Origin: Escherichia coli
Lineage (GTDB): Bacteria; Pseudomonadota; Gammaproteobacteria; Enterobacterales; Enterobacteriaceae
DNA length: 64,000 nucleotides
Assembly (NCBI RefSeq): GCF_013122565.1
Contig: NZ_CP053258.1
Reading direction: 5' to 3' (one strand)
Under the pieces are notes generated by a model. It was given only the letters and a program-made list of their open reading frames with translations. It made no database searches and was not told where the DNA came from. The translations under genes were made by a program, and so were the position numbers. Shown here one piece after another: positions 24,006 to 32,630 of the stretch (its first letter is position 1; every line of letters starts with the position of its first letter).

Positions 24006-25271
24006 ATGAGAAAAATAGTGGCCATGGCCGTTATTTGCCTGACGGCTGCCTCTGGCCTTACCTCTGCTTACGCGGCGCAACTGGCTGACGATGAAGCGGG
24101 ACTACGCATCAGACTGAAAAACGAATTGCGCAGGGCTGATAAGCCCAGTGCTGGCGCGGGAAGAGATATTTACGCATGGGTACAGGGAGGATTGCTCGAT
24201 TTCAATAGTGGTTATTATTCCAATATTATTGGCGTTGAAGGCGGAGCGTATTATGTTTATAAATTAGGTGCTCGTGCTGATATGAGTACCCGGTGGTATC
24301 TTGATGGTGATAAAAGTTTTGGCTTTGCCCTGGGGGCAGTAAAAATAAAACCCAGTGAAAATAGCCTGCTTAAATTAGGTCGCTTCGGGACGGATTATAG
24401 TTATGGTAGCTTACCTTATCGTATTCCGTTAATGGCTGGCAGTTCGCAACGTACATTACCGACAGTTTCTGAAGGAGCATTAGGTTATTGGGCTTTAACG
24501 CCAAATATTGATCTGTGGGGAATGTGGCGTTCACGAGTATTTTTATGGACCGATTCAACAACCGGTATTCGTGATGAAGGGGTGTATAACAGCCAGACGG
24601 GAAAATACGATAAACATCGCGCACGTTCTTTTTTAGCCGCCAGTTGGCATGATGATACCAGTCGCTATTCTCTGGGGGCATCGGTACAGAAAGATGTTTC
24701 CAGTCAGATACAAAGTATTCTCGAGAAAAGCATACCGCTCGACCCGAATTATACGTTGAAAGGAGAGTTGCTCGGCTTTTACGCGCAACTCGAAGGTTTA
24801 AGTCGTAATACCAGCCAGCCCAATGAAACGGCGTTGGTTAGTGGACAATTGACCTGGAATGCGCCGTGGGGAAGCGTATTTGGCAGTGGTGGTTATTTGC
24901 GCCATGCAATGAATGGTGCCGTGGTGGATACCGACATTGGCTATCCCTTTTCATTAAGTCTTGATCGTAACCGTGAAGGAATGCAGTCCTGGCAATTGGG
25001 CGTCAACTATCGTTTAACTCCGCAATTTACACTGACATTTGCACCGATTGTGACTCGCGGCTATGAATCCAGTAAACGAGATGTGCGGATTGAAGGCGCG
25101 GGTATCTTAGGTGGTATGAACTATCGGGTCAGCGAAGGGCCGTTACAGGGGATGAATTTCTTTCTTGCTGCCGATAAAGGGCGGGAAAAGCGCGATGGCA
25201 GTACGCTGGGCGATCGCCTGAATTACTGGGATGTGAAAATGAGCATTCAGTATGACTTTATGCTGAAGTAA
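24006..25271 (+). CDS. uidC: outer-membrane glucuronide porin
   Basis: 421-aa ORF with signal peptide and C-terminal aromatic residue (...IQYDFMLK). Confidence 0.88.
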   Translation: MRKIVAMAVICLTAASGLTSAYAAQLADDEAGLRIRLKNELRRADKPSAGAGRDIYAWVQGGLLDFNSGYYSNIIGVEGGAYYVYKLGARADMSTRWYLDGDKSFGFALGAVKIKPSENSLLKLGRFGTDYSYGSLPYRIPLMAGSSQRTLPTVSEGALGYWALTPNIDLWGMWRSRVFLWTDSTTGIRDEGVYNSQTGKYDKHRARSFLAASWHDDTSRYSLGASVQKDVSSQIQSILEKSIPLDPNYTLKGELLGFYAQLEGLSRNTSQPNETALVSGQLTWNAPWGSVFGSGGYLRHAMNGAVVDTDIGYPFSLSLDRNREGMQSWQLGVNYRLTPQFTLTFAPIVTRGYESSKRDVRIEGAGILGGMNYRVSEGPLQGMNFFLAADKGREKRDGSTLGDRLNYWDVKMSIQYDFMLK

Positions 25272-25277
25272 GAAAAA

Positions 25278-25301
25278 CGCCGGAGAGAAAATTCTCCGGC
25301 G
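25278..25301 (+). terminator. hairpin terminator after uidC
   Basis: inverted repeat cgccggaga / tctccggcg followed by ttt. Confidence 0.6.
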
Positions 25302-25334
25302 TTTCAGATTGTTGACAAAGTGCGCGTTTTTTAT

Positions 25335-25432
25335 GCCGGATGCGGCGTAAACGCCTTATCCAGCCTACAAAAGCTCATAAATTCAAAATGTTGCAGGAAA
25401 AGGTAGGCCTGATAAGCGTAGCGCATCAGGCA
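25335..25432. repeat. REP pair (BIME) in the uidC-ydgA convergent intergenic region
   Basis: gccggatgcggcgtaaacgccttatccagcctac (25335-25368) and inverted copy gtaggcctgataagcgtagcgcatcaggc (25403-25431). Confidence 0.85.
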
Positions 25433-25495
25433 ATCTCTGGTTTGTAATCAGACGAATACGCCGGAGTGAAAATTCTCCGGCGTTTTGGCCGTGAA

Positions 25496-27004
25496 TTACT
25501 GCTGCGGAATTGCCGGTACAGCCGGAACGTTAAGAGCTGGCATCGCAAACATGCCAACAAAATCTTCTAACGACATTTTCTGCCCGTTTAACGTGATCTG
25601 ACCGTTAGTATATTGCAGGCTGGTGGTGATGGTATTGTCCTGCAAGGTGGTCAGACGGAACATCTGCCCCATTGCTGATGCACCTTCAACTTGCTGTTTC
25701 GCCAGTTTTTTCGCTTGATCTTCCTGATAACCTTCCAGCTTCGCTACCTGAGTCATCAACTCAGTTGCCATATCCACCGGAATGGTCAGTTTCGCATCCA
25801 GAGATTTAACCGAACGATCTACTTCCTGCGCCAGCGTTTGCGGCGCTTCTTTAGTCGTTGCCGGATCTTTCAGGAACAGCGACAGATTCAGTGCACTTTC
25901 ACCCTGACTGTTTTTCCAGCTTAGTGGCGCGATAGTAATCACCGGATCGCCTTTCAACATCAGCGGCAGGGCGCTAAAGAAGGCTTCCGTCACTTTCTCC
26001 TGATAAAGTTCTGGATTGTTGGCAATTTCTGGCTGTGCCAGCAGCGCCTGAGTTTGCGCGTTATATTGCTGGCTAAACTGATGCCAGGCTTCGCCATCAA
26101 TTTGGCCGACTTTTAAAGTCAGCTTGCCGCTGCCCAGATCCTGATTCTGTACCTTCAGGCTGTTTAGCGAGTAATCCAGTTGGCTATTGATCGTTTTACC
26201 GTCATTGACCAGATCCGATTTACCGCTGATCTCCATGCCTTCCAGCAGTGCCAGTTCTTTGCCTTCCACTGAAATGGTCATTTTTTCCAGTGACAGTTTT
26301 TGATTTCCTACGCGCTCACCAAAACTTGCCAGCGTGCTGGAACCGTCGGTTTTCAGATTATTAAAGGTCAACTGTACTTTCTGGTTGTATTCGTTAACCG
26401 CGTCTATCCGACCACTTTGCGCCTCCCCGGAAAGGGAGATAGCTTTGCCGTCTCTGTCTGCATTTAACTGGAACTCGCCGCCGCTAAAGGCGACTTTTTC
26501 ATCCTTTTGCTCGTAATTCAGTGGCTTGAGCGAAATATCGGAACTGGAATCTCCGCTGTAACCAATGCGGGAGTTAATCTCAAAAGGCGTTTCACCTTTT
26601 GCCATATCAAACAGTGGCTTGCTAACTTCATTATTAACCAGCGTGGTTTGAATTGATGCCATCGACGGGATCAGGTTCAGTTTTTTTAGCTGGGCAAGGG
26701 GGAAGGGACCATGATCAACCGATTCGTTGAAGATGACGCTCTGACCGCTTTTAATCCACGGATTTTCTTTCCCGGCAATGGGTTTCACCAACAGTTGCAG
26801 CTGACTGCTGAATACGCCGCGATGATAGTTTTGATAACTCACTTCCAGGTTGGATTCAGGAGCGGTCAGTTTGAGTTGCGCGTTCGCCTGCGCGACCATG
26901 TCTTCGAGATGGGTTTCAATCTTCTTGCCTGTATACCATGCGCCGCCTGTCCAGACTACGCCTAGCGCAACAATGACGCCTACCGCTACCAGCGATTTAT
27001 TCAT
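25496..27004 (-). CDS. ydgA: DUF945-family exported/membrane-anchored protein YdgA
   Basis: 502-aa ORF with N-terminal signal/anchor. Confidence 0.85.
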   Translation of the reverse strand: MNKSLVAVGVIVALGVVWTGGAWYTGKKIETHLEDMVAQANAQLKLTAPESNLEVSYQNYHRGVFSSQLQLLVKPIAGKENPWIKSGQSVIFNESVDHGPFPLAQLKKLNLIPSMASIQTTLVNNEVSKPLFDMAKGETPFEINSRIGYSGDSSSDISLKPLNYEQKDEKVAFSGGEFQLNADRDGKAISLSGEAQSGRIDAVNEYNQKVQLTFNNLKTDGSSTLASFGERVGNQKLSLEKMTISVEGKELALLEGMEISGKSDLVNDGKTINSQLDYSLNSLKVQNQDLGSGKLTLKVGQIDGEAWHQFSQQYNAQTQALLAQPEIANNPELYQEKVTEAFFSALPLMLKGDPVITIAPLSWKNSQGESALNLSLFLKDPATTKEAPQTLAQEVDRSVKSLDAKLTIPVDMATELMTQVAKLEGYQEDQAKKLAKQQVEGASAMGQMFRLTTLQDNTITTSLQYTNGQITLNGQKMSLEDFVGMFAMPALNVPAVPAIPQQ

Positions 27005-27104: not shown

Positions 27105-28280
27105 TTACAGCTTGTTGTAAACACGCGCTAAACGGCCGTGGCCTTTGACAGTCACCGGTGATTCGTTGGCGGCAATAAACGCTGATTCACCCGATTTAAG
27201 CTGTAACTGCTGAGAACCTTTCCACAACGTTGCATCGCCTTCGACGCAGAACAAAATGGCGGCACTCTGCTGGCTAATGGTGGTTTCTTTATCACTAAGG
27301 TCATGCAGCGAGAAGGCAAAATCATCCACAGGAATCGGGAAGTCCAGTTCTGCACCTTGTTTCACCGGCTGGGTCAACAACTGGTTAGCCGGTTTGGCTT
27401 CGAACTTCACATTGGCAACCAGTTCCGGAATATCAATGTATTTAGGCGTCAGACCCGCACGCAGCACGTTATCGGAGTTCGCCATCACTTCCAGCGCCAC
27501 GCCTTGCAGGTAAGCGTGCGGCGTTTCAGCGAACAGGAACATCGCTTCGCCAGGATTCAATTTCACCACATTCAGCAACAGCGGGGAGAACAGACCGCTG
27601 TCATCCGGGTAAAATTCAGAAATTAAACGAATCGTTTGCCACGGTTCACCCTGCTGACTGTCGAGCGCCGATTTTAAAATCGCCAGCGCGCGGGATTTTT
27701 CTTCACCCTGCATATTCAACAGGCTGGCGAACAGTTCGCTTAAACGTTCGGCATTAGGCTGTTGTAAAAAGTGAGCAATTGCCGGATGTGCACCTGCGAC
27801 TGGCTGGAGTAGGGAGACAATCTCGGAAAACTCACGAAACGCGTTCATCGCAAGGAAAGGCGTCAGCGCAAAAACCAGCTCCGGCTTGTGGTTAGGATCT
27901 TTATAGTTACGCTCGGCGGCATCCATCGGGATACCTGCGGCATTTTCTTTGGCAAAACCGATTTCAGAATTGCGTTTGTTTGGATGAACCTGAATGGAGA
28001 GCGGCTGTGCTGCGCATAATACTTTGAACAGGAAAGGCAGTTCGCCAAAGCGTTTGGCAACGGCCTCTCCGAGCAGAGTCGATTTATCACTCTCAATCAC
28101 ATCACGCAGTGAAACGATATCTCCGGCGGCATTCTGCACTCGTGAACTGCTTTTCGGATGTGCGCCCATCCACAGCTCGGCCATCGGCTGGCTGGACGGA
28201 TTTTCCATACCATAAAGTTCAGTCAACGCCGTTTTGCTGCCCCAGGCATAGTTTTGCACTGAGTTAATGAGTTTTTGCAT
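27105..28280 (-). CDS. manA: mannose-6-phosphate isomerase
   Basis: 391-aa product from ATG 28280 (MQKLINSVQNYAWGSK...); the track ORF is extended upstream. Confidence 0.92.
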   Translation of the reverse strand: MQKLINSVQNYAWGSKTALTELYGMENPSSQPMAELWMGAHPKSSSRVQNAAGDIVSLRDVIESDKSTLLGEAVAKRFGELPFLFKVLCAAQPLSIQVHPNKRNSEIGFAKENAAGIPMDAAERNYKDPNHKPELVFALTPFLAMNAFREFSEIVSLLQPVAGAHPAIAHFLQQPNAERLSELFASLLNMQGEEKSRALAILKSALDSQQGEPWQTIRLISEFYPDDSGLFSPLLLNVVKLNPGEAMFLFAETPHAYLQGVALEVMANSDNVLRAGLTPKYIDIPELVANVKFEAKPANQLLTQPVKQGAELDFPIPVDDFAFSLHDLSDKETTISQQSAAILFCVEGDATLWKGSQQLQLKSGESAFIAANESPVTVKGHGRLARVYNKL

Positions 28281-28478
28281 GATCAATCCCTGTTTTAATG
28301 TGGAAATTAATCCCGCTATTAAAGCAAGAATCCTACGGGAAGTAACCTGGAGCCGCAAAAAGTCGTACTAGTCTCAGTTTTTGTTAAAAAAGTGTGTAGG
28401 ATATTGTTACTCGCTTTTAACAGGGCAACGGAACACCCGCCCAGAGCATAACCAAACCAGGCAGTAAGTGAGAGAACA

Positions 28479-30125
28479 ATGTCAAACAAACCCTTTCATT
28501 ATCAGGCTCCTTTTCCACTCAAAAAAGATGATACTGAGTATTACCTGCTAACCAGCGAACACGTTAGCGTATCTGAATTTGAAGGGCAGGAGATTTTGAA
28601 AGTCGCACCCGAAGCGTTAACTCTGTTGGCGCGTCAGGCGTTTCATGATGCGTCATTTATGCTGCGTCCGGCTCACCAACAACAGGTGGCCGACATTCTG
28701 CGTGACCCGGAAGCCAGCGAAAATGATAAATATGTGGCGCTGCAATTCCTGCGCAACTCCGACATAGCGGCGAAAGGCGTTCTGCCAACCTGTCAGGATA
28801 CCGGCACTGCGATTATTGTTGGTAAAAAAGGGCAGCGTGTATGGACCGGTGGCGGTGATGAAGCGGCGCTGGCGCGCGGTGTTTATAACACTTATATCGA
28901 AGATAATCTGCGCTACTCGCAAAACGCGCCGCTGGATATGTATAAAGAGGTGAATACCGGCACCAATCTACCAGCGCAGATCGATCTTTATGCCGTTGAT
29001 GGCGACGAGTACAAATTCCTCTGTATCGCCAAAGGTGGTGGTTCGGCAAACAAGACGTATCTCTATCAGGAAACCAAAGCGTTACTAACGCCGGGGAAAC
29101 TGAAAAATTACCTGGTTGAGAAGATGCGCACGCTGGGTACGGCGGCCTGTCCTCCGTATCATATTGCGTTCGTTATTGGTGGAACTTCTGCAGAAACGAA
29201 CCTTAAAACGGTGAAACTGGCTTCCGCTAAATACTATGATGAACTGCCAACGGAAGGGAATGAGCACGGACAGGCGTTCCGCGATGTGGAACTGGAAAAA
29301 GAATTGCTGATCGAAGCGCAAAATCTTGGTCTGGGTGCGCAGTTTGGTGGTAAATACTTCGCTCACGACATCCGCGTGATTCGCCTGCCACGTCACGGCG
29401 CATCCTGCCCGGTCGGTATGGGCGTCTCCTGTTCTGCTGACCGTAATATCAAAGCGAAGATCAACCGTCAGGGGATCTGGATCGAAAAACTGGAACATAA
29501 TCCAGGCAAATATATCCCGGAAGAGCTGCGCAAAGCGGGAGAAGGTGAAGCGGTGCGCGTTGACCTTAACCGTCCGATGAAAGAGATCCTCGCCCAGTTG
29601 TCGCAGTATCCCGTTTCTACACGCTTATCGCTTAACGGCACGATTATCGTCGGTCGTGATATTGCTCACGCCAAACTGAAAGAGCGGATGGATAACGGTG
29701 AAGGGCTGCCGCAGTACATTAAAGATCATCCGATTTACTATGCGGGTCCGGCCAAAACGCCGGAAGGTTATGCCTCCGGTTCTCTTGGCCCAACGACCGC
29801 CGGACGGATGGATTCTTATGTCGATCAACTGCAAGCGCAGGGCGGAAGTATGATCATGCTGGCGAAAGGCAACCGCAGCCAGCAGGTGACGGATGCCTGT
29901 AAAAAACACGGTGGCTTCTACCTTGGCAGTATCGGTGGTCCGGCCGCTGTATTGGCGCAGGGTAGTATTAAGAGCCTGGAATGTGTTGAATATCCGGAAC
30001 TGGGAATGGAAGCCATCTGGAAAATTGAAGTGGAAGATTTCCCGGCGTTTATTCTTGTGGATGATAAAGGAAATGACTTCTTCCAGCAGATACAACTCAC
30101 ACAATGCACCCGCTGTGTGAAATAA
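28479..30125 (+). CDS. fumA: class I (Fe-S) fumarate hydratase
   Basis: 548-aa ORF recognised as FumA. Confidence 0.93.
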
Positions 30126-30129
30126 ACAG

Positions 30130-30154
30130 AGCCGCCCTTCGGGGCGGTTTTTTT
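30130..30154 (+). terminator. rho-independent terminator after fumA
   Basis: ccgccc-ttcg-gggcgg hairpin followed by a 7-nt T-run. Confidence 0.75.
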
Positions 30155-30267
30155 ACATGGCACGAAAGACCAAACATTTGTTATCAAATGGTAAATAATG
30201 AGTGAGCTAAAAGTTGCTTAACGAAAGCAAAACAGAAAGAAAAAATTAATCAGGTGAGGAGCAGGCC

Positions 30268-32630
<2,363 letters not shown>

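Follow-up and report, generated by a model that had tools for sequence, protein, structure and literature searches.

Why does the short spacer between two convergent Escherichia coli genes, uidC and ydgA, hold two nearly identical hairpins, one on each side of a pair of REP sequences? REP and BIME sequences, which account for about 1% of the E. coli genome, have been on record for some 40 years. The spacer lies in a stretch of 64,000 nucleotides, called the window below, along which all positions are counted. A sequence-only reading of this DNA had suggested that a REP insertion left a copy of a terminator hairpin on each of its sides, which could be a footprint of BIME mobilisation, and had offered a paired bidirectional terminator as the alternative. 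Our analysis supports the former: we hold it about 0.9 probable that insertion of a BIME-1 element produced the hairpin pair by duplication. The features of the spacer and its neighbours are as follows.

24006..25271, + strand: uidC ORF (glucuronide uptake porin), from the ORF list and named from all matching E. coli records
25275..25304, no strand: left copy of the duplicated target hairpin, AAACGCCGGAGAGAAAATTCTCCGGCGTTT, from repeat search, folding and the anchored duplication test
25305..25455, + strand: complete BIME-1 (RIB/RIP) of 151 bp, the inserted unit, from presence/absence, paralogues and alignment to the family consensus
25305..25334, + strand: left terminal motif CAGATTGTTGACAAAGTGCGCG..., an imperfect terminal inverted repeat with the right end, found in all copies
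25335..25368, + strand: Y-type REP/palindromic unit, in iREP orientation on the + strand and ending in CTAC (types per PMC3333891, PMC8266576)
25369..25402, + strand: long linker (L motif) with an IHF-like site, from the sequence, its core kept in paralogues
25381-25393: predicted IHF-like site ATTCAAAATGTTG, one mismatch against WATCAANNNNTTR
25403..25431, + strand: Z1-type REP of 29 nt, beginning with GTAG, its length in agreement with z1 in PMC8266576
25432..25455, + strand: right terminal motif ...GGTTTGTAATCAGACGA, a diverged copy with 4 mismatches against the family consensus GTTTGTCATCAGTCTC
25456..25485, no strand: right copy of the duplicated target hairpin, ATACGCCGGAGTGAAAATTCTCCGGCGTTT, from repeat search, folding and the anchored duplication test
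25496..27004, - strand: ydgA ORF (DUF945 protein), convergent with uidC, from the ORF list and named from all matching E. coli records

The uidC stop codon ends at 25271, 3 nt ahead of the left hairpin copy, which in turn adjoins the first base of the BIME-1 element; the ydgA stop codon occupies 25496-25498. The ORFs thus have the convergent arrangement that had been read from the letters, and the two inverted REPs reported between the hairpins are there as well, one of Y type and one of Z1 type. The reference WATCAANNNNTTR is the IHF consensus, and alignment showed that the linker core AAATTCAA...TTGCA is conserved in paralogues. With the motifs used, a motif search found a single REP/BIME in the window, the one at uidC-ydgA. 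Three further matches to the terminal motif, at 40557, 53401 and 62594, were rejected as chance, since they lie in unrelated sequence with no REP motif near. The Rfam scan returned only a sub-threshold naRNA4 match (37 bits against a gathering score of 59.5), which reflects the similarity to REPs, and no other RNA family. A promoter scan gave one weak sigma-70-like match, on the - strand, that did not stand above shuffles. The MG1655 RefSeq record lists no repeat feature at this spacer, so there is no curated REP/RIP name for the element.

The repeat search recovered the hairpins as a 31-nt direct repeat at 25274-25304 and 25455-25485, 94% identical, with a start-to-start spacing of 181. As duplicated copies they are 30-31 nt long, carry 2 mismatches, stand in direct orientation and bracket the 151-bp BIME-1. 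Each copy is an inverted repeat with 12-nt arms, 100% and 92% complementary. The 29-nt segments quoted in the sequence-only reading are present, at slightly other positions: they lie at 25276-25304 and 25457-25485 instead of 25275-25303 and 25458-25486, off by one base in opposite directions. Folding of both hairpins, which that reading had proposed as a check, gave strong structures on either strand, with -21 / -22.1 kcal/mol for the left copy and -19.9 / -20.3 kcal/mol for the right copy. The z-scores ranged from -4.0 to -6.8 on either strand, and 0 of 200 shuffles folded as well. We then scored the duplication with an anchored test, in which the suffix of the left flank is compared, ungapped, with the prefix of the right flank, and 1,482 mismatched flank pairs serve as the null. 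The uidC-ydgA flanks scored 25 (n=30, 28/30 identical) against a null 99th percentile of 5.5, and chance is therefore no explanation for the hairpin repeat.

The comparison of alleles indicated how the pair arose. A 601-bp query across the spacer found matches in 5,425 of 5,426 complete E. coli genomes, and the arrangement of hairpin, BIME-1 and hairpin (the 601-bp allele) was present in 1,750 of the 5,425. Alleles sampled from the remaining genomes spanned 421-422 bp, that is, 181 bp less, which is exactly the repeat spacing, with exactly one hairpin separating the stop codon of uidC from that of ydgA. We aligned the window and K-12 with four of the short alleles, including O157:H7. The single hairpin in the four is AAAAAACGCCGGAGAGAAAAATCTCCGGCGTTTTGG; the left copy of K-12 equals this empty-allele hairpin over the duplicated segment, and the right copy differs from it by 2 nt. 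Because the sampled shorter alleles lack the 181 bp and keep one hairpin, the hairpin pair is best read as a target-site duplication made by BIME-1 insertion, in line with the proposed mobilisation footprint. The inserted block was understated, however, when it was described as two REPs: the insertion holds, and its unit is the complete 151-bp BIME-1 with terminal inverted repeats of its own. Both hairpins without the REP block, the state that had been named as telling against a duplication linked to the insertion, were sought across the E. coli alleles and were absent from every sampled one.

A synthetic "precise excision" version of the window was also used as a query against E. coli genomes. 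The sampled filled (two-piece) matches were at least 97.6% identical and the sampled empty (one-piece) matches at most 95.0%, so that the filled and empty states belong to two flank haplotypes that have diverged deeply; among the sampled alleles, none was an empty allele on the filled haplotype. The polarity, insertion as opposed to deletion, would follow from the logic of a locus-specific duplication that flanks an interspersed repeat. The uidC-ydgA locus itself is an ordinary, old BIME-1 insertion, which is present in K-12 too.

When compared with genomes that are empty at uidC-ydgA, the 152-base interval enclosed by the hairpins aligns with other loci along 96-97% of its length, at 84-86% identity. 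Alignment with full-length paralogues at fepA-entD, rlmC-artJ and asnB-nagD defined the unit as CAGATTGYTGACAAAGTGCGCG..., the Y-REP, AAAAGC..AAATTCAATATATTGCAGG, the Z1-REP and ...GTTTGTCATCAGTCTC, in this order and over ~151 bp, and the uidC-ydgA element aligns to positions 1-147 of the family consensus. The unit is bounded by imperfect terminal inverted repeats, CAGATTGYTGACAAAG ... GTTTGTCATCAGYCTC: compared by eye, CAGATTGCTGACAAAG agrees with the reverse complement of the right end, GAGACTGATGACAAAC, at 12 of 16 positions. As a motif pair the termini read CAGATTGCTGACAAAG and GTTTGTCATCAGCCTC, and the two are kept alike in Escherichia, Pseudocitrobacter and Klebsiella indica.

The architecture of BIME-1 (RIB/RIP) has been described (PMC3333891, PMC1187871), and under the definitions in PMC3333891 and PMC8266576 the element has inverted Y and Z1 units and occurs as one copy per locus. 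It carries the long conserved linker with a predicted IHF consensus site. It belongs to a dispersed, extragenic, multi-copy family at gene 3' ends, with full-length paralogues in every E. coli genome, and the copy studied here lies between convergent stop codons. BIME-1 is known to be present or absent among E. coli isolates (PMC1187871, PMC3333891), and such whole-element presence/absence was found at uidC-ydgA, rlmC-artJ and ymdF-rutG. To judge by its sequence, the inserted element is a member of BIME-1 (RIB/RIP), with all of the features that define the family at that level.

An exact search with the left-end 17-mer, one genome per species, gave at least 120 loci. Among the matches listed there were ~45 full-length elements, from E. 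albertii, E. whittamii, two divergent "E. coli" genomes, Pseudocitrobacter and K. indica, and 39 distinct loci among the matches listed entered the anchored test. A score of at least 10 was reached by 24 of these 39 listed loci, compared with 0.13% of the mismatched flank pairs. In 23 of the 24 anchored duplications among the matches listed, the duplicated segment was a locus-specific hairpin of 16-30 bp (median 21) with a folding energy of -5.6 to -20.9 kcal/mol, and 9 of these 23 listed cases were perfect. Most of the duplicated segments are the palindrome itself, with 0-1 unpaired bases at the ends. Their boundaries are roughly symmetric and fall 0-4 nt outside the GC stem; by eye, the number of extra nucleotides beyond the stem varies, with a sum of 2-8. 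The direct register outscored the inverted one at 22 of the 23 loci (among the matches listed), with one tie, and an inverted duplication by fold-back was rejected on this ground. Among the matches listed, a hairpin adjoined the left junction at 28 of 39 loci and the right junction at 30 of 39, compared with 5.3 and 8.8 for shuffled flanks. At least four T within 8 nt downstream were seen at 13 of the 24 loci with an anchored duplication among the matches listed, and at least four A upstream at 18 of the 24.

Duplications at other kinds of sites appear to be shorter. One clear 10-bp duplication lies on non-hairpin DNA, and there are candidate duplications of 4-7 bp at non-hairpin sites or at one hairpin foot (GTATG, ATGCTAT, AAAGCC); the latter are weaker, because 1-4% of mismatched flank pairs score 4-6. 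About one third of the loci among the matches listed showed no clear duplication, perhaps because the copies there are old, have decayed or were deleted in part. The gudD-barA locus (L055) has a perfect 23-bp duplication; no clean empty allele for it was matched in E. coli, the region being too different between that strain and E. coli proper. Judging from these junctions, whole-hairpin duplication is general for the element family and not peculiar to uidC-ydgA.

Two further loci are polymorphic in the same manner. At rlmC-artJ the element is bracketed by two copies of another hairpin, with an 18-bp duplication in the filled alleles, K-12 included, and the empty allele (strain ECONIH2) has a single hairpin, AAGCCGCAGGTGCGGCTT. 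A third allele of this locus has kept the element and lost only the right hairpin copy. At ymdF-rutG, CFT073 is empty and has the single hairpin CACCGCCGGTTACCCCGGCGGTT; K-12 C600 and strain SCPM-O-B-8794 both duplicate this hairpin with the same boundaries, but the elements that they carry point in opposite directions. In reverse complement, the K-12 copy can be aligned along the full 151 positions of the consensus and scores 108, compared with 39 in forward orientation. The indicated reading is that one hairpin received two independent insertions; less probably, the element was inverted between its palindromic flanks. The length of the duplication is set by the target and not by the element, and its boundaries are the same for either orientation.

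The sister element in K. indica, ~175 bp long, has the same termini and contains palindromic units of the Klebsiella type, and its copies are nearly identical to one another. Among the matches listed, the whole-hairpin duplications are perfect in 5 of the 8 complete copies (one has AAAAGCCTGCTCAACGAGCAGGCTTTT at either end, for instance) and near-perfect in 2 of the 8; the remaining listed copy, 1 of 8, has a perfect 10-bp duplication of non-hairpin DNA, GTTTTTGTTT. On this comparison of copies, their near identity together with perfect duplications indicates recent gain, and K. indica may be a lineage in which the element is still active.

The data themselves lead from a single ancestral hairpin, through insertion of BIME-1, to duplication of the whole palindrome. 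At uidC-ydgA, the ancestral spacer would have held one hairpin with an A-run, a GC stem and a T-run, a bidirectional structure resembling an intrinsic terminator and common to uidC and ydgA. The 151-bp BIME-1 would have been inserted there and the whole ~30-bp palindrome duplicated, one copy adjoining each end of the element. Because the duplicated segment is the target's own hairpin, because its boundaries are nearly symmetric and because duplications on non-hairpin DNA are shorter, we infer that the integration machinery would cut the two strands at opposite feet of the hairpin. A palindrome extruded as a cruciform or as paired hairpins would bring both feet together, and gap repair would then copy the hairpin onto both sides. 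On ordinary DNA the same machinery would make short staggered cuts; on an extruded hairpin, the duplication would be the hairpin. The cuts seem to follow the base of the paired region and not a fixed stagger, since the number of extra bases varies; a fixed small stagger across a cruciform junction was considered and fitted this variation poorly. More speculatively, bending at the IHF site in its middle could fold the element of 151 bp so that its ends come together.

To our knowledge, no enzyme other than TnpA-REP is known to act on the REPs of E. coli. This REP-associated Y1 transposase would be one candidate for the cutting, acting in a way not yet described, and an unrecognised transposase that reads the terminal inverted repeats would be another. 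C^T is absent from the inferred target cuts of the uidC-ydgA hairpin, which counts against cleavage by TnpA-REP there. Target-site duplication by BIME-1 combined with cutting at opposite feet is, in our judgment, a likely account of the locus. A cruciform-type mechanism as such, which we read from the anatomy of the junctions, is put forward tentatively, at somewhat worse than even odds. Only just short of even do we place the broader proposal, in which BIME-1/RIB and its Klebsiella relatives are, or recently were, true transposons whose machinery reads DNA structure, not sequence, and cuts both feet of extruded terminator hairpins or cruciforms, with the palindrome setting the length of the duplication. 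If true, the proposal would add a hitherto undescribed way of choosing and duplicating a target. It would account for the position of REP/BIME sequences at gene 3' ends, would create tandem terminators around each insertion and would give a first sequence-level handle on REP/BIME dissemination.

Of the other explanations, a single-strand route that involves TnpA-REP and is coupled to replication survives best. Here the hairpin would be duplicated without staggered cuts across a cruciform: a nascent strand (or displaced flap) with the copied hairpin would fold back and escape processing, and single-stranded BIME-1 with a 5'-phosphotyrosine would join its 3'-OH. Synthesis would resume upstream of the template hairpin, copying it a second time, and the next round of replication would fix the order hairpin-element-hairpin. 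The enzyme is suited to such steps, as it acts on REP/BIME DNA in single-stranded form only, which it binds and cleaves by way of a covalent intermediate, and performs strand transfer, with one active REP per BIME strand (PMC3333891, PMC8266576). The sole sequence hint toward mobilisation by TnpA-REP is a TC^T(G/C) two nucleotides inside each 3' end of the element, which fits the enzyme's C^T requirement. In addition, the internal REPs change with the host genus (Y/Z1 in E. coli, Klebsiella-type in Klebsiella) and the termini stay constant, as would be expected with a host-specific REP-binding enzyme, and the left-flank dinucleotide is YT at 22 of the 39 loci among the matches listed. The TC^T inside both 3' ends and the REPs that vary with genus between constant termini make this route a serious rival. 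Against it, TnpA-REP is a Y1 HUH enzyme that cleaves single-stranded DNA at C^T, and insertion by its IS200/IS605 relatives leaves no target duplication (PMC3333891); the re-copying step is without precedent. Moreover, the near-symmetric boundaries, the same for both orientations at ymdF-rutG, fit a symmetric double-strand structure more naturally, and the short candidate duplications on non-hairpin DNA resemble ordinary staggered cuts. On balance we regard the route as unlikely, at perhaps one chance in several.

Far less probable is that the filled state is ancestral and that the one-hairpin alleles arose by loss of BIME-1, through deletion between hairpin repeats that were already there. 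Slipped-strand or recombinational deletion acts readily on direct repeats of 18-31 bp, and the rlmC-artJ allele that lost only its right hairpin copy shows that local deletions do occur. A 1997 study of natural isolates is also said to have described "excisions of a whole BIME-1", which counts in the same direction, as does the presence/absence of BIME-1 by which Chiapello et al. 2005 (PMC1187871) summarise that study. Deletion, however, could account for the origin of empty alleles but not for the presence of two locus-specific hairpins at the ends of an interspersed repeat at 23 or more unrelated loci. Recent deletions would also have given empty alleles on the filled haplotype, which the identities (at most 95.0% as against at least 97.6%) show to be absent from the sample, and the near-identical K. 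indica copies with perfect duplications point to recent gain. That the hairpins are independently evolved or selected terminators, one per convergent gene and with no mobility event, is hardly credible: each copy does retain a T-run on one strand only, functionally a putative one terminator per gene, and REP/BIME sequences are known at the 3' ends of transcription units (PMC3333891; PMC12306157), but convergent evolution would not yield copies that are 94% identical in direct orientation, asymmetric loop included, the single hairpin of the empty alleles serves both genes, and the pattern repeats with unrelated hairpin sequences at many loci.

Duplication of the target hairpin by the inserting element also sets the family apart from the systems it resembles. 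The BIME-1/RIB/RIP elements of E. coli are known from Gilson, Bachellier and Hofnung, from Boccard & Prentki 1993 and from Oppenheim et al. 1993. The element studied here shares with them the Y and Z1 units inverted around a linker with an IHF site, the length of ~140-150 bp, the single copy per locus and the extragenic position at gene 3' ends. It departs from the published picture of BIME-1, in which transposon hallmarks are said to be lacking (PMC8266576, PMC3184786), in that the full unit has terminal inverted repeats and a hairpin-sized target duplication. REPINs are said to be mobilised by RAYT / TnpA-REP (Bertels & Rainey 2011; Nunvar 2010; Ton-Hoang 2012). With these the element has in common an inverted REP doublet as the replicative unit, which is non-autonomous and tied to a single-copy Y1 HUH transposase recognising GTAG-REP; by the recognition rules in PMC3333891, it has GTAG-tagged REP hairpins, one GTAG-REP per strand. 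IS200/IS605 chemistry, however, predicts insertion beside a short specific sequence without duplication, whereas the duplications here are defined by structure and 16-30 bp long. At least 23 loci carry whole-hairpin duplications, and at three of the loci studied the empty sites have one copy. The conserved termini also lie ~30 bp outside the REPs, unlike those of REPINs.

A review describes REPs as lacking the signatures of MITEs (PMC3184786). Like the classical MITEs (ERIC/IRU, Correia/NEMIS, RUP), the elements studied here are nevertheless non-coding, intergenic, ~100-200 bp long and bounded by terminal inverted repeats, and they have flanking direct duplications, found at 24 of the 39 loci among the matches listed and measuring 16-30 bp where the target is a hairpin, or 10 bp, possibly 4-7 bp. 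A predicted IHF site is present, as an IHF site sometimes is in Correia. The duplications of classical MITEs, in contrast, are fixed, short (for example, TA) and set by the transposase, whereas the length here follows the target palindrome. Nor did we find a parent insertion sequence with matching ends: in a weak search, ~0.4 Mb of enterobacterial flanks held no pair of left and right ends more than 200 bp apart.

A preference for stem-loop targets at gene ends is shared with IS1397/ISKpn1 and the class C group II introns. IS1397 and ISKpn1 insert in REP loops, IS1397 with target duplications of 3-4 bp, and class C group II introns insert after intrinsic terminators, without duplications. The nearest precedent that we found is the set of REP dimers "inserted within palindromes" in T. 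roseum, H. neapolitanus and A. variabilis (Di Nocera 2013, PMC3733652). The palindromes that bracket those dimers follow a family-wide consensus, unlike the locus-specific hairpins copied whole on both sides here. The main REP/BIME/RAYT/REPIN literature, a coverage that ends short of the 1990s BIME-1 papers (Bachellier 1997, Boccard & Prentki 1993), yielded no description of flanking hairpin duplications, and a hairpin-duplicating transposition signature of the whole BIME-1 family is apparently undescribed before. The mechanism of REP/BIME dissemination is poorly understood (PMC8266576). A reproducible junction signature, with exact ends, terminal inverted repeats, a hairpin-sized duplication and one-hairpin empty sites, makes the question testable.

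Insertion into a terminator hairpin may also alter termination. In the empty allele the hairpin is undisrupted, with six A upstream and TTTT downstream, and its GC stem-loop and T-run mark it as a predicted intrinsic terminator. In the filled allele, TTTCAGATTG comes after the left copy on the + strand and TTTTGG after the right copy; when the - strand is read, the sequences next to the right and left copies are TATTCG and TTTTTCTTAC, respectively. In the terminator scan, only the left copy on the - strand, which has the full T-run, agrees with the terminator consensus (site 25305..25274). TGG comes after the right copy, which leaves GTTTT on the + strand, below the threshold of the scan; on the side that faces the element, the A-run of this copy is broken. 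The insertion thus appears to have split one bidirectional terminator, in that for each gene the T-run of the proximal hairpin is cut short by the element and that of the distal copy is intact. The paired bidirectional terminator put forward in the sequence-only reading aptly describes this consequence of the insertion and fails as an origin of the hairpin pair.

The uidC and ydgA transcripts would each probably read through the proximal hairpin into BIME-1 and stop at the distal copy. Since the proximal T-runs are cut short and the distal ones intact, BIME-1 probably lies within both 3' UTRs, between tandem terminators. Each such insertion would convert one bidirectional terminator into two half-strength copies and put a REP pair, predicted to bind IHF, into the 3' UTR of each neighbouring gene. 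Because the insertions split terminators and enter 3' UTRs, presence or absence of the element may lead to differences between strains in termination and mRNA stability, at dozens of loci. When folded as RNA, the 229-nt segment as a whole is also predicted to be able to form a single long nested hairpin, with the two copies paired to one another (-90.2 kcal/mol, z = -6.8).

The filled alleles of the uidC-ydgA locus, in which the 151-bp element BIME-1 lies between two hairpin copies, and the empty alleles, which have a single hairpin, differ in their flanking DNA as well. Comparison of window positions 25100-25700 with E. coli genomes separated two flank haplotypes, approximately 5% apart, that carry the filled and the empty alleles, respectively. 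Over 420 bp, identity to the window was at least 97.6% for the filled alleles and at most 95.0% for the empty alleles. A split of this depth is unusual in E. coli core DNA and suggests that the polymorphism is old or that the segment was imported. Separately, the annotation of O157:H7 strain TX 376-2 gives uidC as a pseudogene with a frameshift.

The window has the E. coli gene order of uidC, ydgA, manA and the fumarate hydratase genes. Among 5,426 complete E. coli genomes, the best match of positions 25100-25700 and 27200-31200 reached only 98.0-99.0% identity, and the source of the window therefore lies just beyond the E. coli diversity that was sampled. The left hairpin of the window has the loop AAAATT (25289-25292), the same as the right copy, whereas the loop is AAAAAT in K-12 and in all empty alleles. 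Either gene conversion between the two copies, which lie 181 bp from each other, or parallel substitution could account for the AAAATT loop on the left.

At ymdF-rutG, a further polymorphic locus, BIME-1 is inserted in opposite orientations at the same terminator hairpin in K-12 C600 and SCPM-O-B-8794, and this hairpin is empty, without BIME-1, in CFT073. The ymdF-rutG terminator hairpin is an apparent insertion hotspot. At rlmC-artJ, a third allele, found in strain 2013C-3264 and in O157:H7 (L014), retains a diverged BIME-1 and has lost the 24 bp that contain the right hairpin copy. In this O157:H7 genome, the neighbour of artJ is a sulfatase gene, not rlmC.

Outside E. coli, Klebsiella indica TOUT106 harbors a sister element of approximately 175 bp (L124-L132; single copies, 163-181 bp) with the termini of BIME-1 and palindromic units of the Klebsiella type. 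Its copies are nearly identical, and most have perfect duplications of the hairpin on their flanks; this pattern suggests a recent burst. The element of an uncultured Pseudocitrobacter (L070, at approximately 2782-2931) has a longer duplication at its flanks, 36-39 bp in length, that takes in a second stem as well as an A-run. This duplication is shifted by approximately 8 nt from the right end of the element and falls outside the simple whole-hairpin pattern.
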